The position numbers and the translations under genes are program-made. The notes under the pieces are model-generated. The model worked only from the letters and a program-made list of their open reading frames with translations. It had not been told where the DNA came from and made no database searches. From assembly GCA_049287485.1 (NCBI GenBank), contig JBAQFX010000243.1:1-58845 (forward strand): DNA of 58,845 bases. The letters are read 5' to 3'. Positions 30,667 to 55,205 of this stretch are shown here, piece by piece. Source of the DNA: Anaerolineales bacterium. Lineage in GTDB: Bacteria; Chloroflexota; Anaerolineae; Anaerolineales; UBA4823. Position 1 is the stretch's first letter; each line of letters starts with the position of its first letter.

Positions 30667-30690
30667 CTTTACCTGGTCATCTGGCAGGTA

Positions 30691-33397: not shown

Positions 33398-33421
33398 ATT
33401 ACTTGAATAGGAGTAAGAGAA

Positions 33422-33877: not shown

Positions 33878-34608
33878 TCAGCCACGGCAGCATAAATCAG
33901 GTGCTCTCAGGATCCTTCAAAGAGAAGCATCTGGGCACCATCGGGTACTTGGCAATCTTTTCCTGCTCGCTGGCTGCAGTGATGATCTCCCCTCCCCAAT
34001 ACCTGCCCTGGGTCTCTGGAGGTTGCCTGCTGATAGCCTGGCTGGTCTATCCGCAGGCATTCCACCGCCTGATACGCTTGCGATGGCTGGTGATGGTTGG
34101 TCTATTATCCTTACCACCTATCTTCCTGGTGGGAGAGGTCGATCGCAGCATAATTGGAATCTCCTATTCATCAGAAGGATTGCTGAATGGGGTCCAAATT
34201 GCCATGCGGATATTGGTGGTATTGGTCTCAGTGCAAGGTCTTACCAGCATGGTGGATATCTCTTCGATCGCCGGGCTGTTGGAACGGGCCGGCTTGCATG
34301 GACTGGGCTTTTCGTTAGGCGTGGCTCTCAATCTGCTGCCCACTTTACAGCAATCGGCTCAGAATGCCTGGCGTAGCTTGTGGATGCGGGGTGGCTTGCG
34401 CAAGCAACGCTGGCGTGCGTTGCGCTTGCTGGCGGTGACCATCATTGCCAACGCGCTGAGTCGGGCAGAAGAGATTGCCCTGGCTGCAGAAGTGCGCGCA
34501 TTTTCACCTGAGCGTGCTCGCAGTATGCCGATTAAGGTTGGAAAATGGGATTGGGGGATACTCATCCTGGGAGTCTTAGTCATCATGGGACTCGTGCTTA
34601 TATCCTGA
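33874..34608 (+). CDS. ecfT: ECF transporter transmembrane (T) component, EcfT/CbiQ family
   Basis: Polytopic protein with the paired Arg-containing coupling helices NAWRSLWMRGG...ALSRAEEIALAAEVRAF. ATGA overlap with the lipoprotein gene. Confidence 0.75.
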   Translation: MISHGSINQVLSGSFKEKHLGTIGYLAIFSCSLAAVMISPPQYLPWVSGGCLLIAWLVYPQAFHRLIRLRWLVMVGLLSLPPIFLVGEVDRSIIGISYSSEGLLNGVQIAMRILVVLVSVQGLTSMVDISSIAGLLERAGLHGLGFSLGVALNLLPTLQQSAQNAWRSLWMRGGLRKQRWRALRLLAVTIIANALSRAEEIALAAEVRAFSPERARSMPIKVGKWDWGILILGVLVIMGLVLIS

Positions 34609-36118: not shown

Positions 36119-36209
36119 ATTCTACCTGTTGAAAAGGATTTCTTATTCAAGCAGGATGATAACTCATTCATTGGAGAAGATAACGGATTTGTTTTTGGAA
36201 AATACTGTA

Positions 36210-36234
36210 CGGATGACTAAAGTAGCCACGACAG
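36210..36234. repeat. IS right terminal inverted repeat
   Basis: CGGATGACTAAAGTAGCCACGACAG, the partner of 34792..34816. Confidence 0.65.
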
Positions 36235-36448
36235 CTAGAAGATTTTATTGATATCCCAGGACTACGATTATAAAAATTTCTAATCTTTCTATTAACTCCA
36301 AATATGACCAATATGGTATAGTTAGTCTAGTTACCGTTGGATAAATTAGGTATTAATGTTCAACGGGCTCCCGGGGAAGCAACACCTGGTTTGAACACCG
36401 GGGGGTCATTAAAAAATAATAAACCATCAGCTAGATTGGAACAATATT

Positions 36449-37270
36449 ATGAGGAATATATTAACCGTTGTTTCGGAATGGGGATATTGGGGCGAAGAGC
36501 TGGTTGGCCCCCTTGAAGTGCTTGATCAACAGGGGTACAAAGTTGATTTTATGACTAATAAAGGAAAGCGGCCGCATGCACTACCCCCAAGTATGCAGGT
36601 AGGTTATTTTGATCCGCCATTGCATAAAGTAGTAACTGATGAATATTACGCCAACCTCACTCGCAAGGTAGATGAATCCAAACGGCTTGATGATCCAATT
36701 AATTTATCAAAATGGTTCCCTGAGCGCCCTTATTTCAATTCTCCTAATTATGGGAGGGATCTTGAAGCATATTATTCTGCTCGTGATCAATCTTGGAAGG
36801 ACCTGGAAAGGTACGACGCTTTACTCCTCGTAGGAGGAAGCGGACCTATCCTGGATATGGTCAATAATCAACGCGTGCATGATGTTATTTTAGGTTTCTA
36901 TAAAATGGGAAAGTTAATCGCCGCTGAATGTTATGGTGTGGCATGTCTGGCATTTGCTCGAGATTGGGTAGATCGGAAGAGCATTATTTGGGGGAAGCGT
37001 GTTACCGGACATGCATTGGAATATGACTACAAAGATGGAACTGGCTTCTTAAATACGGATATTAACATCGGCCCTCCACCATATCCGCTGGAGCTAATTT
37101 TGCGAGATGCAGTTGGTCCAGAAGGCCAGTACCATGGCGGTGTTGGCCGGACCTTATCGACGATTCTCGATTACCCCTTCCTGACCGGTAGGTCAACCCA
37201 GGATTCGCACCTGGTTGGTGAGTTGATCGTTCAAACGCTGGAAAACGGGCTGAAACGCTATGGCTGGTAA
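36449..37270 (+). CDS. Class I glutamine amidotransferase-like / DJ-1-PfpI superfamily protein
   Basis: YDALLLVGGSGP...GKLIAAECYGVACL shows the nucleophile-elbow Cys context. 273 aa. Confidence 0.6.
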   Translation: MRNILTVVSEWGYWGEELVGPLEVLDQQGYKVDFMTNKGKRPHALPPSMQVGYFDPPLHKVVTDEYYANLTRKVDESKRLDDPINLSKWFPERPYFNSPNYGRDLEAYYSARDQSWKDLERYDALLLVGGSGPILDMVNNQRVHDVILGFYKMGKLIAAECYGVACLAFARDWVDRKSIIWGKRVTGHALEYDYKDGTGFLNTDINIGPPPYPLELILRDAVGPEGQYHGGVGRTLSTILDYPFLTGRSTQDSHLVGELIVQTLENGLKRYGW

Positions 37271-39014
37271 TTTACAGAAAGAAGCAATTCTCACTACTAC
37301 TCCCAAGATGACAGAAAAAACTGGAAGATTTGCCATGCTTGAGCAATTCCTGGCTGACGGGATGGACGTCATGTTCGGCAATCCTGGCACCGTTGAACAA
37401 GGCTTTCTCGATGCCCTGACGTTATACCCTCAGATGAAGTACATCCTGACGCTTCAGGAGTCAGTGGCGGTTTTAGCTGCGGATGGATATGCGCGCGCCA
37501 CCCAAAAACCAACCCTGGTACAGCTACACAGCACACCCGGCGTTGGCAATGCGATCGGAGCCCTTTACCAGGCCAAGCGCGGCCATTCGCCCCTGGTTGT
37601 GATCGGGGGAGATGCCGGAACCCAATATCTGGCAATGGATTCTCAGATGGCAGGAGATTTGGTGGCGTTTGCTGAACCGGTCACCAAGTGGTCTACGATG
37701 GTGGTTGACCCTTCATCGCTTCTCAGGGTCTTACGCAAAGCAGTAAAAATCGCTTCCACGCCTCCCATGGGGCCGGTTTATGTCTGCCTCCCAATGAACG
37801 TGCTCGATGCAACCAATGTCGAGGAAGTTTTCCAAACGACAGTCCCATCGACCCGGGTGGCACCTGACGATCAAACGATCCGGGAGATCGCTCTGATGTT
37901 GGCGGCAGCTGAAAGGCCGATGATTTTTGTCGGAGATGGTGTGGCTTATTCGAGCGCTCAAGATGAGCTTGCTCAGGTAGCCGAATTGCTTGGAGCAGAA
38001 GTGTGGGAGGCTGATGCTGGTGAAGTCAACATCAGCTATATGCATCCCAGTTACAAAGGGATGACGGGACACATGTTCGGTTCAGCTAGCTTGCCCATTA
38101 CATTAAAGGGGGATGTTAATTTAATTTGCGGAACTTATGTCCTTCCGGAAGTTTTTCCAACTCTTGAAAATATTTTCGCACCTCAGGCAAAAGTCATCCA
38201 TATTGATCTAAATAGTTATGAAATCGCCAAAAATCACCCTGTGACTTTGGGTGTTGTGGCGGATCCGAAATTAACCCTCAATAAAGTAGCCCAAGCACTT
38301 AAAGAATTAATGACCCCTCAACAAAAAGAGGCCGCTGCATCCCGGTTCACTGCACTGTGTGAAACAAAAGATGCACAGAGGGAGAAAGCTGTAAATCAAG
38401 ACTATGCAATTAGGGATTCTATCCCAATAAAAATGTCCCGTTTCATGGAAGAATTGATGAAACAGCTTCCTAAAAATGCGATTATCTTTGATGAAGCACT
38501 TACCAGTTCACCTGCGGTATCCCGTTATTTCGCACCTACTCGAACTGGCCAATATTACCTAACGCGTGGCGGATCATTGGGAGTTGGTATACCTGGGGCG
38601 ATAGGAGTTAAGTTAGCCAATCCGGATAAGACCGTGATTGGTTTCACCGGTGATGGTGGTGCCATGTACACGATCCAGGCGCTCTGGACAGCCGCTCGGC
38701 ACAATATCAACGCCAAATTCGTAGTGTGCAATAATCTATCTTACCGTTTATTACAGTTGAATATTGATGCGTATTGGAAAGAACGGGCTATTCCAAAGCA
38801 TGACTATCCCCTAAACTTTGACCTCTCAAGCCCACCACTCCAATTTCATGAGATGGCACGCTCTATGAACGTTCAAAGCTTGCGGGTTGAAAAACCCTCT
38901 GGAGTTGCTCCGGCAATCAAGCAGGCATTAGCTCATCCAGGTCCGTTCCTCATAGACCTTTTACTTGAAAGCGATACCCACCCAGACAGAGTTGGTACTA
39001 CTTGCGGACAATAA
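37260..39014 (+). CDS. Thiamine-diphosphate-dependent enzyme (benzoylformate decarboxylase/acetolactate synthase-like)
   Basis: GNPGTVEQGFLDAL and the ThDP motif GDGGAMYTIQALWTAARHNINAKFVVCNNLSY. An alternative start at 37308 (MTEKTG...) is possible. Confidence 0.85.
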   Translation: MAGNLQKEAILTTTPKMTEKTGRFAMLEQFLADGMDVMFGNPGTVEQGFLDALTLYPQMKYILTLQESVAVLAADGYARATQKPTLVQLHSTPGVGNAIGALYQAKRGHSPLVVIGGDAGTQYLAMDSQMAGDLVAFAEPVTKWSTMVVDPSSLLRVLRKAVKIASTPPMGPVYVCLPMNVLDATNVEEVFQTTVPSTRVAPDDQTIREIALMLAAAERPMIFVGDGVAYSSAQDELAQVAELLGAEVWEADAGEVNISYMHPSYKGMTGHMFGSASLPITLKGDVNLICGTYVLPEVFPTLENIFAPQAKVIHIDLNSYEIAKNHPVTLGVVADPKLTLNKVAQALKELMTPQQKEAAASRFTALCETKDAQREKAVNQDYAIRDSIPIKMSRFMEELMKQLPKNAIIFDEALTSSPAVSRYFAPTRTGQYYLTRGGSLGVGIPGAIGVKLANPDKTVIGFTGDGGAMYTIQALWTAARHNINAKFVVCNNLSYRLLQLNIDAYWKERAIPKHDYPLNFDLSSPPLQFHEMARSMNVQSLRVEKPSGVAPAIKQALAHPGPFLIDLLLESDTHPDRVGTTCGQ

Positions 39015-39070
39015 TAGGCGAATTAAAAGTTTAGATATTCTATGAATAGTACAAGGAAGGAATAAGAAAT

Positions 39071-39544
39071 ATGTCTTTATCAATGGATGAGATCAGAAAT
39101 TTTGTGACTGCCTGGTATAAGGCACTTGACCAGCATGTCGCTCCAAGCGAATGTGCAAAGCTGGTAGCAGAAGATCGTCTGGAGATGATCTTCCCAGAGA
39201 AGACTCTGCATGGGGTGAGTGATTTCCTGGCCTGGTACGCTGGCGGTACATATTCCGATGGCTCCACGGCGCCAGGAGTGATCAACATTTTCTTCGACGA
39301 GAACCACAACGTAGTGAGTGTGGAAGGAGAAATTAAAGGCAATCAAGCAACCTTGGAAGTGGTGGTAGCCTGGCAAGCAAGTTGGTTTGATGCGCCTGCA
39401 GCCAAAAGCAAGCGCACCTCGCTCGATGCCACGCAGCGATGGATTGTACGTGGCTCTACAAGGAATGAATACGGGTTGGAAGTGATCAGTTATAACGCCA
39501 TGGCCCAGCCATTCAAGTATTCCCCTGGATTTGCCCGTTTATAG
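39071..39544 (+). CDS. NTF2-superfamily (SnoaL-like) protein
   Basis: 157 aa. The start MDEIRNFVTAWYKALDQH... and overall alpha+beta cone-like pattern fit the family. RBS AAGGAAGGAA. Confidence 0.55.
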   Translation: MSLSMDEIRNFVTAWYKALDQHVAPSECAKLVAEDRLEMIFPEKTLHGVSDFLAWYAGGTYSDGSTAPGVINIFFDENHNVVSVEGEIKGNQATLEVVVAWQASWFDAPAAKSKRTSLDATQRWIVRGSTRNEYGLEVISYNAMAQPFKYSPGFARL

Positions 39545-39572
39545 CCAACACCGGTTTACAGAGGAAGATATC

Positions 39573-39992
39573 ATGAGCTCAAGCATCGATAACCAAAATA
39601 TCATAAGCAAGCTCCAGACGACAGATGAGAATTTTCCTGGCCTGGCGCCAATGGTTATTGATTCCCTGGGCAAGCAATTCTATGTGCGGCAGGTGCAATA
39701 CCTGATTGCCAAGGATGTCGATCGGCTGGTTGATGAGAATTACCAGGATGATGCAGTTCTGATATCGGCAGATTCCACGGTGCGCGGTAAACCGGCACTA
39801 AAAGAACATTTCCACAACTACTTTAATCGGGTGACTATCAAAGAGGTAAAGTCCACTGATCTATTCGTAGAAACTGACGATACGATCCTCTTTGAAGCCA
39901 CCGTTGAAACCAATTTTGGCATTGCGAAAGTATATGATGCGATGGTCTTGCGTGACAGTAAAGTGGCTTACCACTTTACTGGCGCGAAATAG
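39573..39992 (+). CDS. NTF2-superfamily protein
   Basis: ATG at 39573 after GAGGAAG (the track ORF starts at a TTG at 39531). About 139 aa, ...ILFEATVETNFGIAKVYDAMVLRDSKVAYHF. Confidence 0.5.
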   Translation: MSSSIDNQNIISKLQTTDENFPGLAPMVIDSLGKQFYVRQVQYLIAKDVDRLVDENYQDDAVLISADSTVRGKPALKEHFHNYFNRVTIKEVKSTDLFVETDDTILFEATVETNFGIAKVYDAMVLRDSKVAYHFTGAK

Positions 39993-40117
39993 CCGCGAGT
40001 TCGAATCGTATCTGTCAGTTAAGGTGGAATGGAGCTTTGATGATGAGCACGAATAGTTTGGATGCACCGGTTAAACAAAATGAGGATCTAGATAATATTC
40101 GCTTTCAGGAGGCTTAC

Positions 40118-40543
40118 ATGTCCACCGATCAAAATACGGAGAAAGGCCAACGGTTTTTCGAAGATATGCTTGGTAGAGCTAATTGGGACCTGGCAGACAC
40201 AATCCTGGCAACTGATATCGTCATGCACCATCCCAGCAGCCCCCAACCCGTCGCAGGAGTTAGCAATGTAGTCGGTTTTTTAGGTGCGTTCAGGGCAGGG
40301 TTCCCGGATATGACCATGAAAGTCGAATTAGCCTTTGGCGATGGTGAAATGGTCGCCATCAGGTGGCGCATGAGCGGTACACATACGGCGGAACTATTTG
40401 GTATCCCACCCAGTGGCAAATCAGTTAATGTTGCAGGGATCAGCTTGCTTCGTTTTTACAATGGCAAAGTGGCAGAAGATTGGGTAGCGGAAGATTCGTT
40501 GGGGCTCATGCAGCAGATTGGGGTAATTCCGAGCGGAAGCTGA
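40118..40543 (+). CDS. Ester cyclase (SnoaL-like polyketide cyclase family)
   Basis: ATG at 40118 after AGGAGG (track start 40037). Has the family C-terminal signature ...GKVAEDWVAEDSLGLMQQIGVIP. Confidence 0.7.
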   Translation: MSTDQNTEKGQRFFEDMLGRANWDLADTILATDIVMHHPSSPQPVAGVSNVVGFLGAFRAGFPDMTMKVELAFGDGEMVAIRWRMSGTHTAELFGIPPSGKSVNVAGISLLRFYNGKVAEDWVAEDSLGLMQQIGVIPSGS

Positions 40544-40649
40544 GATTTATTTACCCAAAATTATTCTATGACCTATAAAAACATATTGTTAGATGATGGG
40601 ATCAAAAATCGAAATCAAATTTAACTTATCTATATAAGGAGATAAAAAA

Positions 40650-41072
40650 ATGGACAACACACATCTGGTTCTTCGAATGTACGAATTGTTTAATAAAGGC
40701 GATATGGCTACGATCAAATCGGATCTCTTCGATCCAAACATAAGCTGGACCATGCCCGGACATCATCCACTCTCCGGTCGTATGGAAGGCGTGGACGCCG
40801 TGATTTCTTTCTTCGGTGCCCTGTTCAAAGCGGGAATCCAGGTTGACAACGTGCATTTTGGCACCTTGGATGATGGCACGGTAATCGAGAAACATGTCGG
40901 TCATGGCAAGGTTGGTGAAGAAGAATTTGTCTTCCCAACCTGCACCTCTTATGGCATCAAAAATAACAAGATCTATGAGGTACGTGTTCATACGGGTGAC
41001 CAGCATAGTGTCGACCGTTACTTTTGGAATGTAATCAAACTTAAAGGTATTCCTGCTCGCCTGGCTGAATAA
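40650..41072 (+). CDS. NTF2-superfamily (SnoaL_2/ketosteroid-isomerase-like) protein
   Basis: LVLRMYELFNKGDMATIKSDLFDPNISWTMPGHHPLSG. 140 aa. Confidence 0.6.
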   Translation: MDNTHLVLRMYELFNKGDMATIKSDLFDPNISWTMPGHHPLSGRMEGVDAVISFFGALFKAGIQVDNVHFGTLDDGTVIEKHVGHGKVGEEEFVFPTCTSYGIKNNKIYEVRVHTGDQHSVDRYFWNVIKLKGIPARLAE

Positions 41073-41094
41073 ACCAGCAAGCTGAGGTGATCTT

Positions 41095-41547
41095 ATGGCT
41101 ACTGTAAAGTCAATTATTACCCCCCAACATGTAAAAGATGCCTATGCTGCTCTATCTTCAGGCGATATGGAGCGAATCAAGCAGTATTGGGCGGATGAGA
41201 TGGTCTGGCAAGTACCAGGGCATAACCGATTATCTGGTTGGTATTATGGTCGGGAAGAATTCCTGGCTTTTATGGGTCAGGTCGGCCAGCTCTCCGGTAA
41301 CAGTTTCCACATGGATAACATTGCCGGTCAGGTGATTGTAACGGGTGAATACTCTGCGGATTTAACCCGCAACCGCGGCAACCGTGTCAACCAGGCTGAT
41401 AAAACCATGGATATTGAAGTGGTGCATGTGCTGCGCTGGCGCGATGGTAAGGTGATCGCGGGCAAGGGGGCTATCTTTGGCGATGGTACCACCGAGTATG
41501 ACCAGTTCTGGTCAAATTCACCAGTCGTCACACCACCAAGCCGTTAA
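41095..41547 (+). CDS. NTF2-superfamily protein (paralog of the C-terminal module of 42025..43272)
   Basis: VKDAYAALSSGDMERIKQYWADEMVWQVPGHNRLSGWYYGREEFLAFMG... closely matches residues of the downstream fusion protein. Confidence 0.65.
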   Translation: MATVKSIITPQHVKDAYAALSSGDMERIKQYWADEMVWQVPGHNRLSGWYYGREEFLAFMGQVGQLSGNSFHMDNIAGQVIVTGEYSADLTRNRGNRVNQADKTMDIEVVHVLRWRDGKVIAGKGAIFGDGTTEYDQFWSNSPVVTPPSR

Positions 41548-41884
41548 TACTATACGGGAATCATTCTCTGTTGAGATAATCTGGTGCTATTTTGCGCCGA
41601 AGGAGACAATTATGCCCATTATAACCATTCAGGCCATCGAAGGGGTCGTACTGACCAGCCCGGAACAGAAACGCGAGCTGCTCAAGAAAATGACCGATAC
41701 ATTCATCAGCGTGGTGGGTGATGTTGCTCGACCATACACGTACTGTATTATTCAGGAAACACCGCCGATGGAATGGTCGATTGCCGGGAGGCCGTTGCCT
41801 GATTTGCCTTTCTTGTATGGACCTGAATATGCTGTCATGCACAAGAATGCGAATGAGATCATGCGTAAATTTGTCGAATCTCAA
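41116..41884 (+). repeat. Segmental duplication, copy A (NTF2-like gene, spacer and tautomerase 5' part)
   Basis: Collinear with 42841..43610. In the first 60 nt of the two tautomerase ORFs I count 50 of 60 identical bases. The protein pairs are clearly paralogous. Confidence 0.7.
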
Positions 41885-41977
41885 TCCATTACGCAACCAC
41901 CCCAAAAATCCAATGGCGATTCTTCAGCAAATGTCGAACCTCGAAAACGTGCCCATGATGCGTGGGGCGGTGATTAA
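41612..41977 (+). CDS. Tautomerase-superfamily (4-oxalocrotonate tautomerase-like) protein with C-terminal tail
   Basis: ATG at 41612 after AGGAGA gives MPIITIQAIEGVVLTSPEQKRELLKKMTDTF, that is, the catalytic Pro1 and beta-alpha-beta unit. The track ORF start at 41477 would bury Pro1. Confidence 0.7.
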   Translation: MPIITIQAIEGVVLTSPEQKRELLKKMTDTFISVVGDVARPYTYCIIQETPPMEWSIAGRPLPDLPFLYGPEYAVMHKNANEIMRKFVESQSITQPPQKSNGDSSANVEPRKRAHDAWGGD

Positions 41978-42024
41978 TCGCCGATAGTTGCTAACAAGAT
42001 AATTCTTACTCATATAAAGGATGG

Positions 42025-43272
42025 ATGAATATGTCAGATCAGTTTCGTATCATAATTAAAAAAGGACCCAATCCAGGACAGATTTGGGACCTGACTAAGG
42101 CAGCCATAACGTTAGGTCGTGATAAATCCAATGACCTGTACATCAATGATGCCAGCTTACATCCAGTCCATGCTCTATTGATAAAGACAGCTACTGGTTA
42201 TTCTCTGGAAAACATCGGTCCGGCCAATGCTACTATGGTGAATGGCAACAGCCTGACCGCAACTATGCCTTTACTGGACGGTGACCAAATAACGATTGGT
42301 AAGGAAATCCTTATGGAATTCGATAAAGTTGAATCCATGGCAGACACCAGTTCCAACAAAACATCAACGGATAAAAGTATCGAAGCACATGCCCAGGAAC
42401 ATCGGGCGCTGTTCACCCGCTGGTTTGAGGAGCTGTGGAACAAAAAGAATTATGCAATTACCCAGGAATTGGTAGCCGACGACTTTACCGCGCATGGTGC
42501 GGGTGGTCAAGACATCAAACAAGGCCCGGATGGTGTGGCGGGGATGGTCAAGATCTGGCATCAGGCATTTCCGGATGGACATATGACCATGGATGACATT
42601 ATTACTGAAGGTGAAATGTCTGTGATCCGCATGACCTTTCGTGGCACCCAAACCGGTGAATTCTACGGGGTTCCGGCCAGCAATAAAAAGGTGGAAGTAA
42701 CCTCAATCGGCATTGACCGGGTCGTGGACGGCAAAATCCGCGAAGGTTGGGGAGAACTCAACATGCTGGGGATGATGCAGCAGATGGGCGCCATCCCTTC
42801 TCCAGATCAAGGACCGCAGACTTATGAAATTGAAACTGAGATCACGCCCGAGCATGTCGGTGAAGCCTATGCGGCATTGTCTTCCGGCGATATGGAGCGC
42901 ATCAAACAGTATTGGGCTACGGATATGGTCTGGCAGGTGCCGGGTCATAACGAGCTTTCTGGCTGGTATTACAGTCGGGATGAGTTCCTGGCTTTCATGG
43001 GCAAAGTTGGCGAGCTATCCGATCATAGCTTCCGCATGGATCCGGTGGCCGGGCGCGTTCTGGTTACCGGTGACTATTCGGTTGACCTGACACGAAATCG
43101 TGGCTACAGAAAAGGGGCTACCGAAAAGACCATGGATATCGAAGTCGCCCATGTACTGCGTTGGCGCAATGGTAAGGTGATCGCGGGCAAGGGAGCCATC
43201 TTTGGCGATGGCGCCACAGAGTACGACCAGTTCTGGTCACGCTCGCCAGTGGTTACCCCCCCCAGCCACTAA
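42025..43272 (+). CDS. Three-module fusion: FHA-like domain, ester cyclase and NTF2-like domain
   Basis: FHA-like: ITLGRDKSNDLYINDASLHPVHALL...NGNSL...LLDGDQITIG. Ester cyclase: FEELWNKKNY...ELNMLGMMQQMGAIP. NTF2-like: AYAALSSGDMERIKQYWATDMVWQVPGHNELSGWYY. Confidence 0.7.
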   Translation: MNMSDQFRIIIKKGPNPGQIWDLTKAAITLGRDKSNDLYINDASLHPVHALLIKTATGYSLENIGPANATMVNGNSLTATMPLLDGDQITIGKEILMEFDKVESMADTSSNKTSTDKSIEAHAQEHRALFTRWFEELWNKKNYAITQELVADDFTAHGAGGQDIKQGPDGVAGMVKIWHQAFPDGHMTMDDIITEGEMSVIRMTFRGTQTGEFYGVPASNKKVEVTSIGIDRVVDGKIREGWGELNMLGMMQQMGAIPSPDQGPQTYEIETEITPEHVGEAYAALSSGDMERIKQYWATDMVWQVPGHNELSGWYYSRDEFLAFMGKVGELSDHSFRMDPVAGRVLVTGDYSVDLTRNRGYRKGATEKTMDIEVAHVLRWRNGKVIAGKGAIFGDGATEYDQFWSRSPVVTPPSH

Positions 43273-43610
43273 AGTTTCAGGGGGGCTGTTAATATAAATA
43301 TATATACCGGCGCAATTCAACGCCGGAGGAGAAAGCTATGCCTATTATTACAATCCAGGCAATTGAAGGGGTTGTCTTAACCAGCCCGGAACAGAAACGT
43401 GAGCTGCTCCAAAAGATGACCGATACTTTTATCAATGTGGTCGGCGATGTTGCTCGACCCTACACGTACTGCATTATTCAGGAAACTCCAATTATGGAAT
43501 GGTCCATTGCTGGGAGACCATTACCAGATTTACCTTTTTTGTACGGACCTGAATATGCTGCCATGCACAAGAACGCGAATAAGATTATGCGGAAATTTGT
43601 CGAATCTCAA
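42841..43610 (+). repeat. Segmental duplication, copy B (fused into larger ORFs)
   Basis: The partner of 41116..41884. Here the NTF2 unit is the C-terminal module of the FHA fusion, and the tautomerase unit is the N-terminal module of the tautomerase-cyclase fusion. Confidence 0.7.
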
Positions 43611-44060
43611 GCCAACAATCCAACTGCCATATCCTCTAATGGAAACTTAATCGAACTGAATAAAGAGGTGATGCGCCGGATGATCGAGGAAGTTTGGAAT
43701 CAGGGCAACCTGGCTACTGCGGATGAGCTATTTGCACCCGATCATACCAGCCCTAGTGCGCCTCAACTTCCTCCAGGTTCTGAGGGAGTAAAGATGCTGG
43801 TCAAGATGTTTCGCGAAGCTATGCCTGATTACCACATGGATATTGACCTGATGGTTGCCGATGAATCTCAGGTAACTGGCCGATTTACTCAGAGCGGGAC
43901 CCACACCGGCGGTGACTTAATGGGAATGAAGGCTTCTGGTCGTAAAGCTACATGGACCGAGATTGGTGTTCTGAAGATTAAAGACGGCAAAATTGTTCAA
44001 AGCTGGTACGAAGTCGACATGTTGAGCATGATCCAACAGTTAAATGGGGCAAAGCAATGA
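43338..44060 (+). CDS. Two-module fusion: tautomerase (Pro1) and ester cyclase
   Basis: MPIITIQAIEGVVLTSPEQKRELLQKMTDTF..., then IEEVWNQGNLATADELFAPDH...EVDMLSMIQQLNG. Confidence 0.7.
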   Translation: MPIITIQAIEGVVLTSPEQKRELLQKMTDTFINVVGDVARPYTYCIIQETPIMEWSIAGRPLPDLPFLYGPEYAAMHKNANKIMRKFVESQANNPTAISSNGNLIELNKEVMRRMIEEVWNQGNLATADELFAPDHTSPSAPQLPPGSEGVKMLVKMFREAMPDYHMDIDLMVADESQVTGRFTQSGTHTGGDLMGMKASGRKATWTEIGVLKIKDGKIVQSWYEVDMLSMIQQLNGAKQ

Positions 44061-44095
44061 GTTGGATTAAGAAGTAAAGATAATGGATAAAAATT

Positions 44096-44578
44096 ATGGA
44101 AAATCTAATTGGCCGATCCGTACAGGCGGAGAAGATCTGGGCAGGAGAAATTACTCCTACCTCAGATCTCGCTGACAATAATGTTGCACTTGTGAAGCGA
44201 TTGTTCGAAGAGGTGTGGAACAAGGGTAACTATAGCCTGGTGAATGATTTGCTGGCACCAGACTTTGTGGATCATAACCACCTTCCTGGCGCACCAGATG
44301 GTCGTGAAGGCTTTTGGGGTGGTGTAAATATGATCCGTACTGCTTTTCCTGATATTAAATTTTCAATCGATCAGATTGTAGTCGAAGATGACCGCCTTGC
44401 GATTCGCCTGACGGGATTGGGCACACATAAAGGTGACTTTATGGGCATATCACCAACCGGGAAACAGGTTTCGCTAGAAAGCATGACTTTCTTTCATATC
44501 GAAAATGGCAAAATTGCAGAACGCTGGGGCATATCAGATATCCCAAGAGTTATGCAACAACTCGAAGCTAAAGGATAA
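44096..44578 (+). CDS. Ester cyclase (SnoaL-like)
   Basis: FEEVWNKGNYSLVNDLLAPDFVDHN...ISDIPRVMQQLEA. Confidence 0.75.
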   Translation: MENLIGRSVQAEKIWAGEITPTSDLADNNVALVKRLFEEVWNKGNYSLVNDLLAPDFVDHNHLPGAPDGREGFWGGVNMIRTAFPDIKFSIDQIVVEDDRLAIRLTGLGTHKGDFMGISPTGKQVSLESMTFFHIENGKIAERWGISDIPRVMQQLEAKG

Positions 44579-44584
44579 ATCAAT

Positions 44585-45430
44585 ATGTCCGATATCGCTA
44601 AAACTCTTTATCAAAACTTTGTAGAAGAAGTGATCAACAAGGGTAATTATGCGCTAATCCCTGAGATTTTTGCTGAGGATTATCTGGATCACAATGCACC
44701 TCCAGGAGCGCCAGTAGGAGGATATGATGCCATACGGGCAGTACCAATCATGTTTCGAGGTGCGTTCCCGGATGTGCATTTTACTATCGAAGATATGATC
44801 AATCAGGATGGTTGGGTTGCCACGCGGGTTACTGGCAAAGCCAGCCATCTGGGTAAGCCATTCATGGGTATCGAGCCGACCGGTCTGCGGGTAAGCTGGT
44901 CATCCATGGGATTCTTTCGGGTCGCGAATGGACGAATTGTTGAGCACCATGGTCAACCTGATTTAGGTGCCTTACGTAACCAACTCATGCAAGAAATCAA
45001 GCCAGGTACCATCGATCATAATCGTTTTATCGTTTCACGATATGTCTATGCCACCAACATTGGTGAGCTGGACCGCTTCGACGAATACGTAGATCCTGGT
45101 TTTGTAGATCACAATGCCCTGCCCGGGCAGCGACCTGGGGTCGATGGATTGAAAGACGCCTACCGTATGTTCTCATCCGCCTTTTCTGACCTATGGTACA
45201 CATTCGAAGCCTTAGTGGCAGAGGACGACCTAGTTGTTGGACGAGGCGTCATCGAAGGGAAGCACACCGGAGCTTTTATGGGTATCCCACCTACGGATAA
45301 AGTAATTCGTTGGACGGGAACGAGAATGTTCCGGATTGCTAATCAAAAAGTGACTGATGGATGGATCGACCTGGATATGTTCGGCATGATGATGCAGCTG
45401 GGGGCTATCCCGGCAGGTGGCCAGTCTTAA
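44585..45430 (+). CDS. Tandem double ester cyclase
   Basis: Two modules: VEEVINKGNYALIPEIFAEDYLDHN... and ...FDEYVDPGFVDHN...DLDMFGMMMQLGAIP. Confidence 0.7.
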   Translation: MSDIAKTLYQNFVEEVINKGNYALIPEIFAEDYLDHNAPPGAPVGGYDAIRAVPIMFRGAFPDVHFTIEDMINQDGWVATRVTGKASHLGKPFMGIEPTGLRVSWSSMGFFRVANGRIVEHHGQPDLGALRNQLMQEIKPGTIDHNRFIVSRYVYATNIGELDRFDEYVDPGFVDHNALPGQRPGVDGLKDAYRMFSSAFSDLWYTFEALVAEDDLVVGRGVIEGKHTGAFMGIPPTDKVIRWTGTRMFRIANQKVTDGWIDLDMFGMMMQLGAIPAGGQS

Positions 45431-45455
45431 ATGCTGGTGACATAGGAGGATTAAT

Positions 45456-46463
45456 ATGAATACTATTACAGAGAAAAAAGCCAGCCTTGCAGAGCAGATT
45501 TGGAATGGTGAAGTGATCCCTGGGGCCAGCTACACCGCACCGGGTCGTCCATTAACCACTAACGAGATGAAAGATATCATGGTGCGTTTGTATGATGAAT
45601 CAAACAAACAAAACTTCTCGGTATTTGATGAGATGTTTGCACCAAGTTTTGTCAGCTATGGTGGAGCTGGTTTTCGAGATTTGGTTGGTGCGGAGGCTTT
45701 TCGCCAGCTATATGTGCAATTTATTTCCAGCCTGCCTGATTTAAACTTTCATGTAGACCAGGTGGTTGCAGAAGGAAATCTCTGCGGTGTACGGGGCACA
45801 TTGAGCGGCACACATAAAGGCAACTTTATGGGTTTTGCACCACCCACTGGAAAGTTTATCTCGTGGACCGGTACAGCGATTTTTCGTTTTGACCAGAATG
45901 GATTGATGGATGCCCGCTGGCAGGAATGGGATGGATTGAGCGTGATGCAACAGATGGGAGTTATACCCGTTCCGGCTGCGGATGGCAGACCCTTGCCTAC
46001 CCCAGTCCCGCCGTATGTGGCTGGCGGGGTTTATACCTCCCCCATACAAAATAAGGCAGCGATCCAGCGCCTGGTGGAGGAGGTTTGGAATCAGGGGAAC
46101 CTGGCTTTTACTGACCAGATTTACCATGCTCAAGCCACATATCCCAGCAACCCGAGCTTACCAACCGGCGGCCAGGGGATTAAGACCAGCGTGGGGATGT
46201 ATCGCGAGGCAATGCCAGATTTCCATGCCGAATTCAAGAACCTATTAGCGGATGGTGATATGGTGTTGGCATGGCTTTCGCAGAGCGGCACTCATAGCGG
46301 TACTTTGATGGGTGTTCCGGCTACTGGTAAAAAGGTTACCTGGGGCCAGATCATCATTGCCCGTTTTGCAGGTGGTCAAATTGTGGAGAGTTGGAGTAAC
46401 GAAGATGTGCTCGGCCTGCTGCAGCAGCTTGGCGTAGGCGGTGGGGCTTCTTCAGGAGCGTGA
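45456..46463 (+). CDS. Tandem double ester cyclase
   Basis: Module 1 ends EWDGLSVMQQMGVIP. Module 2 runs VEEVWNQGNLAFTDQIYH...NEDVLGLLQQLGVG. Confidence 0.7.
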   Translation: MNTITEKKASLAEQIWNGEVIPGASYTAPGRPLTTNEMKDIMVRLYDESNKQNFSVFDEMFAPSFVSYGGAGFRDLVGAEAFRQLYVQFISSLPDLNFHVDQVVAEGNLCGVRGTLSGTHKGNFMGFAPPTGKFISWTGTAIFRFDQNGLMDARWQEWDGLSVMQQMGVIPVPAADGRPLPTPVPPYVAGGVYTSPIQNKAAIQRLVEEVWNQGNLAFTDQIYHAQATYPSNPSLPTGGQGIKTSVGMYREAMPDFHAEFKNLLADGDMVLAWLSQSGTHSGTLMGVPATGKKVTWGQIIIARFAGGQIVESWSNEDVLGLLQQLGVGGGASSGA

Positions 46464-46599
46464 TCTTTCCACCAGGTTGCTGCTGAGACCAGGAGCGGAA
46501 AAAATCAGCCGGCAACAGTTTGGGAAAACACAGATGCGTAACAGGATGGAGCTAAAGGTGTCAATTCGATGTGTAGCCAGATAATTAAGGAGTAAGGAT

Positions 46600-46995
46600 A
46601 TGGATAATCATGAAATTATTCGAAGATATTATGAAACTGCAAATGCTGGTAAATGGGATGCTTGGTGTGACCTTTTTACCGATGACATGGTGATGGATGA
46701 GCAATTAGCCGGGCACATCGTCGGCCTGGTTACCTTACGACCGATGATGGCGGGGATGGGTCAGGTTTATGCCAAGTTCCAAAATGTGCTCAAGGAGATG
46801 CTGGTCGAAAAGGATCAAGGTGCAGTCGTCTCACATATTTCCGCCCTGGCTGCCAAGTATCCCGATCAGCCGATTGAAGCGGAGGTGATGAATTACTTCC
46901 GCTTCCGGGATGGGAAGATTTCTTACATGCGTAATGTACATGACACAAAACCTTTTGAGCCATTCTTACGCCAAATTTCAGGGGGCAAATCATGA
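46600..46995 (+). CDS. NTF2-superfamily (SnoaL_2-like) protein
   Basis: IIRRYYETANAGKWDAWCDLFTDDMVMDEQ...YFRFRDGKISYMRNVHD. ATGA overlap with the GMC gene. Confidence 0.6.
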   Translation: MDNHEIIRRYYETANAGKWDAWCDLFTDDMVMDEQLAGHIVGLVTLRPMMAGMGQVYAKFQNVLKEMLVEKDQGAVVSHISALAAKYPDQPIEAEVMNYFRFRDGKISYMRNVHDTKPFEPFLRQISGGKS

Positions 46996-48527
46996 ATGAA
47001 TATGATTTTATTGTTGTTGGTGCTGGCTCTGCGGGATCTGCGATAGCCAATCGCCTCAGTGAACAGCCAGATTCGAAGGTTATTGTGCTAGAAGCAGGGG
47101 GAGCGGAGATTGGGACAAATGTAGAGAATCCCTCTGTCTGGTTTACTTTGTTAGGCTCACAGATTGATTGGGGCTATTCTACTGTACCCCAACCTGGCTT
47201 GAATAACCGCCAAATATATGAGCCACGCGGCAAAATCATAGGTGGCACCAGCCAATTATATCTAATGATGCATATTCGCGGACATCCTGAGGATTATAAC
47301 AACTGGGCTTACAACGGAAATGCCGGATGGTCTTATAAGGATGTTCTACCTTATTTTAAAAAATTGGAAGACCAAGAGGATAAAACCAGTGACCTGACAG
47401 GTGTAGGCGGTCCACTGCACCTGATCAACCCGAAAAACCATCAGCACCACCCATTAACTCCACTTTTTATTCAAGCTTGTCGCGAGCTGGGCTTTCCTGA
47501 TACAGAGGATTTTAATGGCCCTCAGATGGTAGGGGTTGGATGGCATCACGTTAATATAGGCGAGGATGGTAAAAGGAACAGTGATGCAGTAGCTTATTTA
47601 TTACCAGCTCTAAAACGATCTAATCTGACTTTATGTACCAACTCCCAAGCGACTCGTCTCCTCTTTCAGGGAACGCGTTGCATTGGTGTGGAGTACGTGC
47701 AAAATGGCGAGCTTAAAACTGTGCGTGCCTCACAAGAGGTCATTGTATGCTTAGGAGCCCTGGAATCGCCTCATCTGCTTTTAAATTCTGGCATTGGGAA
47801 AGCAAAACAGTTAAAGGAATTTGATAAGCCTATCGTGGTTGATCTGCCTGGTGTGGGAGAAAATTTCCATAATCATGTTTTGACTGGTGCAATTATGGAA
47901 ACCAAGGAACCTGTTGCACCAGGCCATTTAAATACTTCTGAAGCGGGTCTATTTTGTTTTTCAGAGCCTGGTCTTACCGTGCCAGATTTGCAATTTAACT
48001 TCGTTCATCTACCATTTGACGTTATTGTTGGTCAAAATAATCCCAATTCAGTTTCTTTAATACCCGGTCTACAGCGTCCGCTTTCACGGGGTTGGGTACG
48101 CCTTGGAAGCCGAGACCCCCTGGATAAACCCCTGATAAACCCCAATTATTTATCAGAAGAGGCCGATGTACAGCGGATGGTCCAGATGACCAAGATGAGC
48201 CGTGAAATATTTGGCACGAAATCATTTTCTAAAGCACTTTCAGGGCGTGAATTACTACCGGGGCCTGAGTATCAGACGGATAGAGATTTATTAAAATTCG
48301 TAAGGAACCGCTGTGATTCGTATCACCACCAAGTAGGATCTTGCAAGATGGGTAAAGATGCCATGGCTGTCGTGGATTCCCGATTAAAGGTTTACGGTGT
48401 TGAAGGATTGCGAGTGGCGGATGCCAGTATTATGCCCACCATAACCACTGGAAACATACATGCCCCAATTGTGATGATCGCCGAAAAAGCCAGTGACATG
48501 ATAAAGCAAGATCATGGTCTAGTCTAG
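46992..48527 (+). CDS. GMC-family FAD oxidoreductase (choline dehydrogenase-like)
   Basis: YDFIVVGAGSAGSAIANRLSE, GGTSQLYLMMHIRG, and C-terminal HQVGSCKMG...VDSRLKVYGVEGLRVADASIMP. Confidence 0.9.
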   Translation: MNEYDFIVVGAGSAGSAIANRLSEQPDSKVIVLEAGGAEIGTNVENPSVWFTLLGSQIDWGYSTVPQPGLNNRQIYEPRGKIIGGTSQLYLMMHIRGHPEDYNNWAYNGNAGWSYKDVLPYFKKLEDQEDKTSDLTGVGGPLHLINPKNHQHHPLTPLFIQACRELGFPDTEDFNGPQMVGVGWHHVNIGEDGKRNSDAVAYLLPALKRSNLTLCTNSQATRLLFQGTRCIGVEYVQNGELKTVRASQEVIVCLGALESPHLLLNSGIGKAKQLKEFDKPIVVDLPGVGENFHNHVLTGAIMETKEPVAPGHLNTSEAGLFCFSEPGLTVPDLQFNFVHLPFDVIVGQNNPNSVSLIPGLQRPLSRGWVRLGSRDPLDKPLINPNYLSEEADVQRMVQMTKMSREIFGTKSFSKALSGRELLPGPEYQTDRDLLKFVRNRCDSYHHQVGSCKMGKDAMAVVDSRLKVYGVEGLRVADASIMPTITTGNIHAPIVMIAEKASDMIKQDHGLV

Positions 48528-48573
48528 CTTGATAAGCTTATTCCTAAAAAATAACAACTACCAGGGCTAAAAA

Positions 48574-49161
48574 ATGAAATTGCAAGGGAAAAAGATCGGC
48601 ATATTAATAGAAGGGGATTATTACGAACCCGAAATTTGGTATTACCGTCACCGCTTCGCCGAAGAAGGTATGGATATCCACTTTTTAACCAGAATGTGGG
48701 GACAAACCTCAGAAGTGATAACAGCTGGTTTCAAAGGACATGAATACAAGGTTCCATTTGATGGTCATGTTGAGAGTTTTGAAGATATGGACGATGAAAC
48801 CCTCAGGAGTTTTTCTGCCATCATAGTCCCTTCTGGGATGGTATCTGATCGGCTGCGGTACACCGACGATGTAAATAAAATATCTCCAGCCACAGCTTTC
48901 ATTCGACGTGCTTTTAATGAAAAAAGTATTATCAAAGGGATCATATGTCATGGAATGTGGTTAGTTTCTGCTGTGCCTGGATTGGTTCGTGGCAGAAAGA
49001 TTGTAGTGCATAACAACCTGATTGGTGATGCCAGGAATATGGGCGCAATTTATACGGATCAAGATGTAGTAGTGGATGCTGATCTGGTAACGGGCAGGAC
49101 GGGGGGACACTGCCATCTTTTTGCCCGAAAGATTATCGATCTACTCTATGAAAAAGCTTAG
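48574..49161 (+). CDS. DJ-1/PfpI-family protein
   Basis: SAIIVPSGM...IKGIICHGMWLVSA shows the nucleophile elbow. Confidence 0.75.
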   Translation: MKLQGKKIGILIEGDYYEPEIWYYRHRFAEEGMDIHFLTRMWGQTSEVITAGFKGHEYKVPFDGHVESFEDMDDETLRSFSAIIVPSGMVSDRLRYTDDVNKISPATAFIRRAFNEKSIIKGIICHGMWLVSAVPGLVRGRKIVVHNNLIGDARNMGAIYTDQDVVVDADLVTGRTGGHCHLFARKIIDLLYEKA

Positions 49162-49191
49162 CTCGAATCGATCATTCAAAAGGATTTACAA

Positions 49192-49617
49192 ATGTTAATT
49201 TCTTCCCATGTTGCTCTTTCCTGTAAGGATCCATCGGCCAGTGAGAATTTTTATACCCGTTATTTTGGTTTTCAACGGGCGCGCGTAATCCCATTGGGTG
49301 ATGAAAAGATAATCTTTATTAAATCTGGTGATACCTACCTTGAACTGTTTCAGTCCAAAGGAGAATCACCTCTACCTCCATTCCAAAGTGATGGTCCTAC
49401 GTATCCAGGCCTTCGCCATATCGCCTTTCAGGTGGAGGATGTAGACAAAAAATTAGCTCAGATGGGTGGCGAGGCACACATCACACTTGGTCCGCTGGAT
49501 TTTGATGATTTTATTCCTGGATGGCGTTCCGTTTGGTTAACCGATCCAGACGGTAATATCGTCGAAATTTCGCAAGGTTACACTGATCAGGCAAATCCAC
49601 CCAAATTTACTGGCTAG
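49192..49617 (+). CDS. VOC-family (glyoxalase/bleomycin-resistance/dioxygenase) protein
   Basis: HVALSCKDPSASENFY...LRHIAFQVEDVD...WLTDPDGNIVEI. Confidence 0.8.
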   Translation: MLISSHVALSCKDPSASENFYTRYFGFQRARVIPLGDEKIIFIKSGDTYLELFQSKGESPLPPFQSDGPTYPGLRHIAFQVEDVDKKLAQMGGEAHITLGPLDFDDFIPGWRSVWLTDPDGNIVEISQGYTDQANPPKFTG

Positions 49618-49646
49618 CTTGGCGAAGGTTTTTCTTGCGATGATAT

Positions 49647-50333
49647 ATGAACGATAAAAAAGATAATCGATCAATGAATACTGATAAAAAATCGATCATC
49701 CTCAGCGGTGCGTCTGGCAATGAACGGATTACTGCTTTTAGTGATGGTGTTTTTGCCATAGCCATCACCCTTTTGGTTTTTAGGTTATCCGTTCCAGCTA
49801 CCCTGCCTGAAAATGGCTTATGGGATTATGTACCCAAGCTTCTTCCGCTAATAGCTAGTAATGTTCTAGGTTTTATTGTACTGGGAATTTATTGGGTTGG
49901 CCATCACAATATGTTTAAACATATCAAACGCCATGATCGGTCTTTAATGTGGTTGAATATCTTGTTCTTGATGTGCGTGGCTATGATGCCTTTCTTTGCT
50001 GGATTAATAAGTGAGCACGGAGAAGACACCATAGCGCTTGCGTTCTATGCCTTTTGGCTGATGCTAACCGGATTGGTGTTGGATTCCATCTGGTGGTACG
50101 CGTCAAAGGATCATCGTCTGGTTGATTCGAATATTGACCCGGACCTAATTCTTTTTGTCCATCGGAGAGTATTGACTGCACCATTACTTTATCTTATTTC
50201 GATAGGAGTTGTATTCATCAGCCACACTCTCACCTGGTTGATTTTTGTAACGGTCATCTTGATCTATATTTTACCCACTCCATTGGATCAAATACATCAT
50301 AAACAGTTGAACATTCAAGAAGATATCGATTGA
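49647..50333 (+). CDS. TMEM175/DUF1211-family membrane protein (putative K+ channel)
   Basis: Signature RITAFSDGVFAIAITLLV plus six hydrophobic helices. Confidence 0.8.
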   Translation: MNDKKDNRSMNTDKKSIILSGASGNERITAFSDGVFAIAITLLVFRLSVPATLPENGLWDYVPKLLPLIASNVLGFIVLGIYWVGHHNMFKHIKRHDRSLMWLNILFLMCVAMMPFFAGLISEHGEDTIALAFYAFWLMLTGLVLDSIWWYASKDHRLVDSNIDPDLILFVHRRVLTAPLLYLISIGVVFISHTLTWLIFVTVILIYILPTPLDQIHHKQLNIQEDID

Positions 50334-50373
50334 AGATAGTATCTTTTATTTCAGAGAGGATAGAGGTCTTAAT

Positions 50374-52248: not shown

Positions 52249-52290
52249 ATTGCTGACTGTACAACTATCAGTGAGCTTGGTCTCAGAGGA

Positions 52291-52638: not shown

Positions 52639-52647
52639 GATAGATCC

Positions 52648-54759: not shown

Positions 54760-54803
54760 TCTAAATCAATTTATCGACGATCATGGTGACGAAAGGGAAA
54801 AAA

Positions 54804-55130: not shown

Positions 55131-55205
55131 TCCTTCTCTGGTTGTAACTGGAGATAACAATTTTTCGGGTTTGCTGTGTTTGGCGGAAAGGGGGGTGGAG
55201 GATTA

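Follow-up and report, generated by a model that had tools for sequence, protein, structure and literature searches.

The subject of this study is a gene cluster in a 58,845-nucleotide stretch of Anaerolineales DNA (NCBI GenBank assembly GCA_049287485.1, contig JBAQFX010000243.1), which at its full length is referred to here as the window. At positions 39071-46995, twelve consecutive open reading frames (ORFs), all on the plus strand, encode 14 modules of the NTF2 fold and two Pro1 tautomerase modules, framed by ThiJ-like, thiamine diphosphate (ThDP)-dependent, GMC, DJ-1/PfpI and VOC proteins. This array is not a local oddity; it is one copy of a conserved, old and apparently vertically inherited cluster, and its recurrence in more than 30 independent loci places it far beyond chance. 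In our estimation the chances are about even that the cluster specifies a pathway of several cytoplasmic enzymes, which may form a physical assembly and would act on a carbonyl- and enol-rich small molecule that is plausibly derived from an alpha-glucan. The protein superfamilies involved are all known; as far as we could find, the literature does not describe their composition here, the number of specialised NTF2 paralogues, the linkage to GH13 enzymes, the mobile FHA domain or the shared tail motif, and full-text searches returned no description of the cluster. A first-pass annotation of the window had stated that its reading would fall if homologous arrays were common and already assigned to a characterised pathway; such arrays have turned out to be common, and no characterised pathway to which they belong was found in that literature.

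The first-pass annotation, based on the letters and a list of translated ORFs, had counted 14 NTF2-superfamily modules in the twelve ORFs, eight of them with ester-cyclase signatures and six of other SnoaL_2 or ketosteroid isomerase (KSI)-like types. The ORF list and translations agree with its coordinates, domain searches place the ORFs in the NTF2 and tautomerase superfamilies, and 11 of the 12 ORFs carry the NTF2-fold modules (Pfam, AlphaFold2, Foldseek). Eight modules score above the PF07366 gathering cut-off of 28.4 bits, namely those of g5, g9C, g10C, g11, g12 (2 copies) and g13 (2 copies), at 109-210 bits per protein; the other six are g6, g7, the C-terminal domain of g9, g14, g4 and g3. 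In all, 12 of the 14 score above the gathering cut-offs of Pfam NTF2-clan models. The g4 protein reaches 24.5 bits with PF12680 against a cut-off of 27, and its orthologue in locus L006 matches PF12680. The g3 protein matches neither a Pfam nor an NCBIfam model. It has 682 homologues. An AlphaFold2 model based on 26 homologues (pLDDT 91.3, pTM 0.85) retrieved only NTF2-like folds from the PDB with Foldseek; CaMKII hub, NTF2 and G3BP NTF2-like domains were among them, as were proteins with the annotation scytalone dehydratase or ketosteroid isomerase. According to this predicted structure g3 is an NTF2-fold protein, and the Pfam calls, the g4 orthologue and the g3 model together make the count of 14 correct. 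The two tautomerase modules (PF01361, in g8 and the N-terminal domain of g10) and the architectures FHA-SnoaL-NTF2 (g9), tautomerase-SnoaL (g10) and di-SnoaL (g12 and g13) were recovered as annotated, and Pfam assigns the frame genes to ThiJ_like, ThDP, GMC, DJ-1_PfpI and Glyoxalase/VOC families.

The cluster opens with g1 (36449-37270, 273 aa), a ThiJ_like/GATase1-like protein (PF17124, 75.8 bits) with orthologues of 66-90% identity in almost every Anaerolineae-type locus; it overlaps by 11 nt the start of g2 (37260-39014, 584 aa), a benzoylformate decarboxylase (BFDC)-like ThDP enzyme with three TPP_enzyme domains. The divergent NTF2-fold protein g3 (39071-39544, 157 aa) is followed by the SnoaL_2-like g4 (39573-39992, 139 aa from the ATG), which is found in some loci only, and by the ester-cyclase-type SnoaL protein g5 (40037-40543; PF07366, 116 bits), whose start is uncertain between TTG 40037 and ATG 40040 and whose close orthologue (77%) occurs in L003 and L004 only. 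Two SnoaL_2 proteins matching PF12680 come next, g6 (40650-41072; orthologues 66-91% identical) and g7 (41095-41547). The stand-alone Pro1 tautomerase g8 (41612-41977, 121 aa) starts at ATG 41612 (MPIIT...) and not at TTG 41477. In g9 (42025-43272, 415 aa; PF00498, PF07366, PF12680 and PF14534) an FHA domain precedes a middle SnoaL domain, called g9C, and a C-terminal SnoaL_2 domain, called g9N, while g10 (43338-44060, 240 aa; PF01361 and PF07366) joins a tautomerase to the SnoaL module g10C. The SnoaL protein g11 (44096-44578; PF07366, 137.6 bits), the di-SnoaL proteins g12 (44585-45430; g12a and g12b, in about half of the loci) and g13 (45456-46463; g13a and g13b), each with two PF07366 matches, and the SnoaL_2 protein g14 (46600-46995; PF12680, 61 bits) complete the array. 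The g14 stop overlaps the start of the GMC flavin oxidoreductase gene (46992-48527, 511 aa; PF00732 and PF05199), and genes for the DJ-1/PfpI protein (48574-49161, 195 aa; PF01965) and the VOC, glyoxalase-I-like protein (49192-49617, 141 aa; PF00903) follow.

The first-pass annotation had ended the unit at 49617, which is too early: the relatives continue through TMEM175, AGE-like, STAS and GlgX genes to about 54759. In the window these plus-strand genes encode a TMEM175-type membrane protein (49647-50333; PF06736), whose membership is doubtful because not all loci have it; an AGE-like (alpha/alpha)6 protein (50374-52248, 624 aa; PF07221, 61 bits), which follows the cluster in all complete Anaerolineae-type loci; a STAS-domain protein (52291-52638), assigned by synteny and the Pfam labels of the loci; and the glycogen debranching enzyme GlgX (52648-54759, 703 aa; TIGR02100, 695.6 bits vs a cut-off of 640.9). 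From g1 to the second STAS gene (36449 to 55130) every intergenic gap is 136 nt or shorter, and start and stop codons overlap twice, at g1/g2 and at g14/GMC. No signal peptides were seen on inspection of the translations of the cluster proteins, so the system looks cytoplasmic. As had been annotated, polyketide synthase (PKS), nonribosomal peptide synthetase (NRPS) and transporter genes are absent from the array; the accompanying statement that it contains no regulator does not hold, since the FHA domain of g9 is a regulatory module within it.

The conservation of the cluster was established in a survey of one genome per GTDB species with an alignment of g10C orthologues as the query, which gave 32 loci that were annotated by phmmer with the modules of the window as queries. 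An exact-protein search with g10 had matched only a 1.7-kb contig. The g10 homologues are named Chloroflexota, Anaerolineae or Promineifilaceae, and the contigs of four of them have the same gene order as the window, so that the synteny search proposed with the first-pass annotation did recover the ordered array in related genomes. In about 26 Anaerolineae-type species representatives (ordered cluster in L002-L032 and L036) the order is ThiJ_like, ThDP, g3/g4, g6, g7, tautomerase, (FHA-)SnoaL-NTF2, SnoaL modules, g14, GMC, DJ-1, VOC, (TMEM175), AGE-like, STAS, GlgX. Each cluster holds 8-19 modules. The core consists of g3, g6, g7, the tautomerase, g9C, g9N, g10C, g14, GMC and VOC, and the accessory genes are g4, g5, g11, g12 and g13.

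A second, compact form is found in L033, L038-L040 and L042/L043. Its order is ThDP, g3, SnoaL_2, SnoaL_2, tautomerase A, g14-like, GMC, VOC, a CBM48-GH13 protein (770-856 aa), sometimes an alpha-amylase, tautomerase B, SnoaL, and SnoaL or di-SnoaL, with an alpha/beta hydrolase gene flanking the second block on a side that varies by locus. The DJ-1 and ThiJ-like proteins are missing from it, and VOC adjoins or neighbours GMC in both architectures. The hosts are Ca. Competibacter (L033, L042, L043), a Verrucomicrobiae-labelled metagenome-assembled genome (L038) and two high-GC contigs (L039, L040); taxon labels of such genomes can be wrong, and the Competibacter assignment is backed by several assemblies. 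One Competibacter tautomerase is indexed in 349 blocks of the sequence collection. Two further loci hold partial versions of the cluster. L034 (Acidimicrobiia-labelled) has many modules together with ThDP, GMC, DJ-1 and VOC genes, and at 14800-16149 and 16710-18341 of its minus strand encodes SnoaL_2-cupin and SDR-SnoaL_2 fusions. L035 (Dormiibacterota-labelled) encodes 806- and 825-aa proteins of four to five SnoaL modules (2524-4944 and 6268-8745) as well as an alpha/beta-hydrolase-SnoaL fusion.

The first-pass annotation had also noted that the array begins right after an insertion sequence (IS). An rve-type (integrase core) transposase gene does lie directly upstream of the cluster (35009-36118, minus strand), and we considered whether the cluster is an IS-borne island. 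This was rejected: no syntenic locus has the transposase. What lies upstream varies between genomes (a molybdopterin oxidoreductase, a Na/H exchanger, a CBM48 protein or a GH4 enzyme) and never includes an IS, so the adjacency is incidental, a local insertion specific to this window. In an alignment of the region upstream of g1 from five close relatives, no conserved operator or promoter was seen beyond the ribosome-binding site.

The modules are old, specialised paralogues, as judged from high identity between orthologues, low identity between paralogues, low dN/dS and a distinct set of invariant polar residues in the alignment of each orthogroup. Pairwise identity among the eight SnoaL modules of the window is 26-47%; close similarity is limited to the pair g7/g9N (77%) and to the two tautomerase modules (93%). 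Orthologues of the core modules g6, g7, tautomerase, g9C, g9N, g10C and g14 from different genomes share 73-92% identity, which equals or exceeds the conservation of the ThDP and GMC enzymes. Nei-Gojobori dN/dS is 0.03-0.18 where dS could be estimated, that is against L008 and L013 only; elsewhere dS is saturated, as it is against L002 and L003, and dN is 0.04-0.32. This check, which had been proposed with the first-pass annotation, speaks against rapid diversification.

A direct repeat with a 1725-nt period (41116-41875 and 42841-43601, 73-83% nucleotide identity) has a mixed history. Its origin by recent tandem duplication was considered and rejected for g7 and g9N, which are old, slowly evolving paralogues: either one shares 76-93% identity with its orthologues but only 62-80% with the paralogue in the same genome. 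The tautomerase part of the repeat, including 36 nt upstream of the ATG, is by contrast a lineage-specific copy that created the tautomerase-g10C fusion. The extra tautomerase before g10C occurs in the window, L002, L003 and L004 only, and the fusion is confined to close relatives; in other loci g10C is encoded by itself, as a 137-aa protein with 75-92% identity.

The partner enzymes retain catalytic hallmarks, namely Pro1 of the tautomerases, the ThDP motif together with residues equivalent to Glu47 and His70, and the DJ-1 cysteine. In 40 loci all tautomerase modules begin with Met-Pro (two have Val-Pro start codons) and they are N-terminal in every fusion, as a Pro1 catalyst requires, which fits a free Pro1. 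The roles of the residues of 4-oxalocrotonate tautomerase (4-OT) are established. With that family the modules share Pro1, a beta-alpha-beta unit roughly 60 residues long and, at the Arg39 position, an Arg (...ARPY.../...VRPF...), whereas an Arg11 equivalent is absent, so that the residue check proposed with the first-pass annotation supports Pro1 and Arg39 and not Arg11. They also differ in a helical extension of about 35 residues, a tail with a Trp motif and frequent N-terminal fusion to SnoaL. PF01361 scores are 30.4 and 24.5 bits against a gathering cut-off of 22, and scores at the equivalog level (DmpI, PRK01964) are 29-31 bits against cut-offs of 70-86; on sequence grounds the modules are therefore members of the PF01361 family and not 4-OT orthologues. 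The compact clusters (L033, L039, L040, L042, L043) have two types. Type A (MPI(V/I)SVK(I/V)I...ARPY..., tail ...RRRPRGP) adjoins the g14-like gene and GMC, and type B (MPIIEVRFI...TRPFVYC...) adjoins the SnoaL pair; Anaerolineae retain type B only.

The ThDP enzyme shares with BFDC and acetolactate synthase the three-domain architecture and the GDG...NN motif. In alignment with BFDC the equivalents of Glu47, His70 and Glu28 are kept and Ser26 is replaced by Thr. It differs from BFDC in lacking the His281 equivalent and in the translational coupling of its gene to a ThiJ-like gene, and it scores 301.6 bits against the NF005485 (benzoylformate decarboxylase) cut-off of 493. The GMC protein belongs to its family (GMC_oxred_N 174.7 bits, GMC_oxred_C 139.4 bits) and falls below the equivalog cut-offs of BetA (460.6 vs 732 bits) and MftG (326.9 vs 387 bits). 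The DJ-1/PfpI protein (PF01965, 59 bits) has a nucleophile-elbow Cys in ...IICHGMW... and stays below the PfpI and glyoxalase III equivalog cut-offs. The best score of the VOC protein among glyoxalase I and methylmalonyl-CoA epimerase equivalogs is 52.4 against 140, which leaves it at the level of the PF00903 superfamily. PDB sequence searches with the ThDP, GMC and AGE-like proteins gave family-level neighbours only.

Neighbouring genes of the cluster are repeatedly fused. The recurrent combinations are tautomerase-g9C, tautomerase-g9C-g13a, g10C-g14, g14-GMC, FHA-GMC, FHA-g11, g3-g14, g5-like-g14, SnoaL-cupin and alpha/beta-hydrolase-SnoaL; L025 has the g14-GMC fusion, and five loci have g10C-g14. 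The FHA domain is mobile, being attached to g9 in most genomes, to GMC in L006 and to g11 in L016, and missing from the L003 orthologue of g9. Cluster proteins of the window and of loci among L002-L036 share a brief motif, A-[DEQHA]-x-[IVLAK]-W-x-[GSTRD] or more simply A-x-x-[IVLA]-W-x-[GS], which is confined to disordered tails and linkers. It stands at the C-terminus of the stand-alone tautomerase (in the window ...RAHDAWGGD of g8, 41950-41974), in up to four tandem copies in the Ser/Ala/Gly-rich linkers of tautomerase-g9C proteins, and in the N-terminal extensions of g13a, g11 and g5-like modules, where it is kept in g13a orthologues. The copies in the extensions in the window are AEKIWAGE of g11 (about 44126-44149, plus strand) and AEQIWNGE of g13 (about 45489-45512, plus strand). 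The array ORFs contain 69 copies in 72,051 residues and the other ORFs 10 in 357,444, a 34-fold enrichment. That figure is soft, since the expression was built from the very sequences in which its copies were then counted, and it is the position of the copies that carries weight. The motif may serve as a docking peptide. It is missing from the compact clusters, as are FHA domains.

The argument for a functional link to alpha-glucan is that two non-orthologous GH13 partners accompany the cluster in two architectures. In complete Anaerolineae-type loci GlgX lies downstream together with the AGE-like (alpha/alpha)6 protein. In the compact clusters the CBM48-GH13 gene is embedded in the cluster and its product is only 24-26% identical to GlgX, and Competibacter also has a cytoplasmic-type alpha-amylase. 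Upstream of the cluster there is a CBM48 protein in L005 and a GH4 enzyme in L006. Elsewhere in the window genes on the plus strand encode phosphoglucomutase (7948-9609) and an alpha-glucan phosphorylase with DUF3417 (9651-12194). The order STAS-GlgX-STAS is kept in relatives. In the window the genes from 52291 to 57038 (plus strand) encode STAS, GlgX, STAS and lastly a multidomain protein that combines cNMP-binding and GAF domains with a SpoIIE (PP2C phosphatase) domain. They form a regulatory set of the partner-switching type into which the glycogen debranching gene is interleaved.

The first-pass annotation had offered, as one of two options, a multi-step route for reactive carbonyl or enol compounds. 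The tightly packed, co-directional cluster, the kept gene order, strong purifying selection on each paralogue, catalytic hallmarks and repeated fusions are consistent with such a route, without proving it. In the pathway that we envisage, the input would be a sugar freed from intracellular alpha-glucan (glycogen), which is plausible given the presence of GH13 enzymes with the cluster in each of two independent architectures. The GMC enzyme, with its translationally coupled NTF2 partner g14, would oxidise a hydroxyl to a carbonyl. The Pro1 tautomerase or tautomerases and the NTF2 paralogues (g3, g6, g7, g9C/g9N and g10C, with the accessory g4, g5, g11, g12 and g13) could carry out keto-enol tautomerisation, dehydration or hydration, and cyclisation or ring rearrangement. 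The BFDC-like ThDP enzyme might make or break a C-C bond beside a carbonyl, and the VOC and DJ-1/ThiJ-like proteins might handle intermediates or by-products of the 2-oxoaldehyde or enediol type. FHA domains, and perhaps the Trp-containing tail peptide, might tether the enzymes or place them under Ser/Thr-phosphorylation control.

Several observations weigh against this pathway. None of the close homologues has a known substrate, product or activity, and the array and frame enzymes (NTF2, tautomerase, ThDP, GMC, DJ-1 and VOC) failed all equivalog-level tests, so that named enzymes offer no chemistry to carry over. Among proteins of solved structure, the NTF2 modules come closest to natural-product cyclases or hydroxylases (IdmH, SnoaL2/AclR, NgnD/StmD), none of which acts on sugars. 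The link to GH13 is not universal, as L034 lacks a GH13 gene and carries NmrA/SDR reductases and an SRPBCC cyclase instead, and within Anaerolineae the linkage to GlgX could be inherited synteny rather than function. The fusions are weak evidence for physical complexes because only neighbouring genes fuse, and the enrichment of the tail motif bears the reservation given above. A promoter and terminator scan of 36000-55500 gave counts equal to the shuffled expectation and no operon boundaries, and the sole Rfam match in the whole window is a molybdenum cofactor (Moco) riboswitch that is unrelated to the cluster and gives no clue to a ligand.

The glycogen-derived pathway can be compared with the anhydrofructose route of glycogen degradation in fungi and red algae, in which alpha-1,4-glucan lyase is followed by anhydrofructose dehydratase and ascopyrone tautomerase (PMC6629992; PMC8056936 and its reference 17). 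The likeness lies in the logic: there an alpha-glucan is converted to a keto-sugar and then to dehydrated, tautomerised enolones, and here alpha-glucan enzymes adjoin an oxidoreductase, tautomerases and folds capable of dehydration. The enzyme families and folds differ, and no GH31 glucan lyase (PF01055) was matched in any Pfam-labelled locus; the comparison is one of analogy and not of homology. A bolder form of the proposal, which we regard as unlikely, is that the cluster is an unrecognised branch of glycogen catabolism in Anaerolineae and Ca. Competibacter in which a GMC-oxidised glucan sugar would be worked by the tautomerase/NTF2 battery into an enolone, pyranone or carbocyclic product. 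It would then be a bacterial counterpart, built on unrelated folds, of the fungal and algal pathway, with the Anaerolineae enzymes gathered by the Trp-containing docking peptide and the FHA domain.

Among the alternatives, biosynthesis of a specialised metabolite survives best, although we consider it rather unlikely. Here the ThDP enzyme would be a carboligase that builds the scaffold through an acyloin-type reaction between 2-oxo acids or aldehydes, the NTF2 proteins would be cyclases, pericyclases or cofactor-free oxygenases, GMC would be the oxidant, and the glycogen genes would be mere neighbours. The nearest solved relatives of the NTF2 modules keep this explanation alive. For g7/g9N these are NgnD and StmD (E 5e-24), [6+4]/[4+2] cyclases, and for the SnoaL-type modules they are IdmH (E 4e-19; PMC6830212), SnoaL2 (SnoL), AclR, AknH, SnoaL and TsrD, with a match to 1SJW at an E-value of 1.8e-4. 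In addition, L034 has SRPBCC Polyketide_cyc2, NmrA and SDR-SnoaL_2 genes, and the lack of a His281 equivalent is compatible with a ThDP function other than decarboxylation.

The resemblance to the pericyclases NgnD, StmD and 101015D and to IdmH is at the family level only, however: those proteins belong to PKS clusters, where their substrates are macrolide or polyene intermediates, and no PKS domains were found in the window or in loci L002-L006, L039, L040, L042 and L043. The coupled g14-GMC pair resembles the partnership of the NTF2 proteins SnoaL2 and AclR with a separate flavin-dependent redox enzyme. The SnoaL/AknH/DnrD systems, which the eight PF07366 modules recall, have one or two such modules instead of 8-19, while here no locus has type II PKS or anthracycline genes and the context is chromosomal and housekeeping-like. 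The modules score 23-54 bits with the SnoaL/DnrD methyl-ester cyclase subfamily model NF033407 against a curated cut-off of 200. Transporter, resistance, PKS and NRPS genes are absent from all loci with Pfam labels, GH13 genes lie within the compact clusters, and the broad, vertical-looking conservation (73-92% identity) in a fixed chromosomal context is atypical of secondary-metabolite clusters.

It is decidedly unlikely, in our judgement, that the NTF2 modules are largely non-catalytic, serving as ligand-binding or scaffold subunits of a regulated hetero-oligomer tied to glycogen metabolism or stress and organised by FHA, STAS/SpoIIE and the Trp tail motif. NTF2 folds are often oligomerisation hubs or peptide binders, and CaMKII hub domains and the G3BP NTF2-like domain are the top Foldseek matches of g3; different proteins share the tail motif, FHA domains switch partners, and STAS and SpoIIE genes lie downstream. 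Each orthogroup, however, has many invariant polar residues (His, Asp, Glu, Gln) as in active sites, the modules always stand beside bona fide enzymes (GMC, ThDP, VOC, Pro1 tautomerase), and the compact clusters do without both FHA and motif. A detoxification or metabolite-repair battery for reactive dicarbonyls, glyoxalase-like and not a linear pathway, is very unlikely. It would account for the DJ-1/PfpI, ThiJ-like and VOC proteins, and enediol or oxoaldehyde species would be possible substrates of the GMC enzyme and the tautomerases; against this, DJ-1 and ThiJ-like proteins are not core, being missing from the compact clusters, every glyoxalase equivalog test failed, and 8-19 specialised NTF2 modules are hard to reconcile with a generic role. 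The second option of the first-pass annotation, a rapidly diversifying ligand-binding or immunity-like NTF2 array, can be discarded even though module number varies between genomes (8-19), since orthologues are 73-92% and paralogues 26-47% identical, dN/dS is 0.03-0.18, even the closest pair, g7/g9N, is an old duplication, and the marks of such arrays (divergent orthologues, relaxed or positive selection, a linked toxin gene) are not seen, with no toxin gene in the loci.

NTF2 "ester cyclase" and SnoaL_2 proteins are among the commonest unannotated small enzymes of bacteria. By tying 8-19 NTF2 modules to redox (GMC), C-C bond (ThDP) and tautomerase partners, the cluster offers a testable setting for at least seven orthogroups at once. 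Its hosts include Anaerolineae, which are abundant in soils, lakes and activated sludge, and Competibacter, which in wastewater treatment serves as the model glycogen accumulator. Should the GH13 linkage prove functional, a so far unrecognised fate of the glycogen stored by these hosts would be encoded in the cluster. The tail motif and mobile FHA domain would add an example of peptide-mediated enzyme assembly.

The remainder of the window holds several further features. The Moco riboswitch (30482-30676, plus strand; 66.9 bits with Rfam) lies just downstream of a MoeA gene (29221-30423) and precedes an operon (30743-34608) for an NTPase, an ABC ATPase, a protein with a molybdopterin-binding oxidoreductase domain and a CbiQ-type transporter component. 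A kdp potassium-uptake region (19702-28426, plus strand) includes KdpA (19702-21501) and the KdpD sensor kinase with its response regulator (25059-28426). Nearer the start of the window, a B12-binding radical SAM/DUF4070 gene (2333-3811) lies upstream of an RNase II (RNB) gene that is followed by a gene for a baeRF-family (bacterial archaeo-eukaryotic release-factor-like) protein (4099-7222, plus strand). A 201-aa ORF (12245-12850, plus strand) joins the C-terminal part of acetate kinase to the C-terminal domain of XFP (phosphoketolase) and looks like a gene fragment or chimera.

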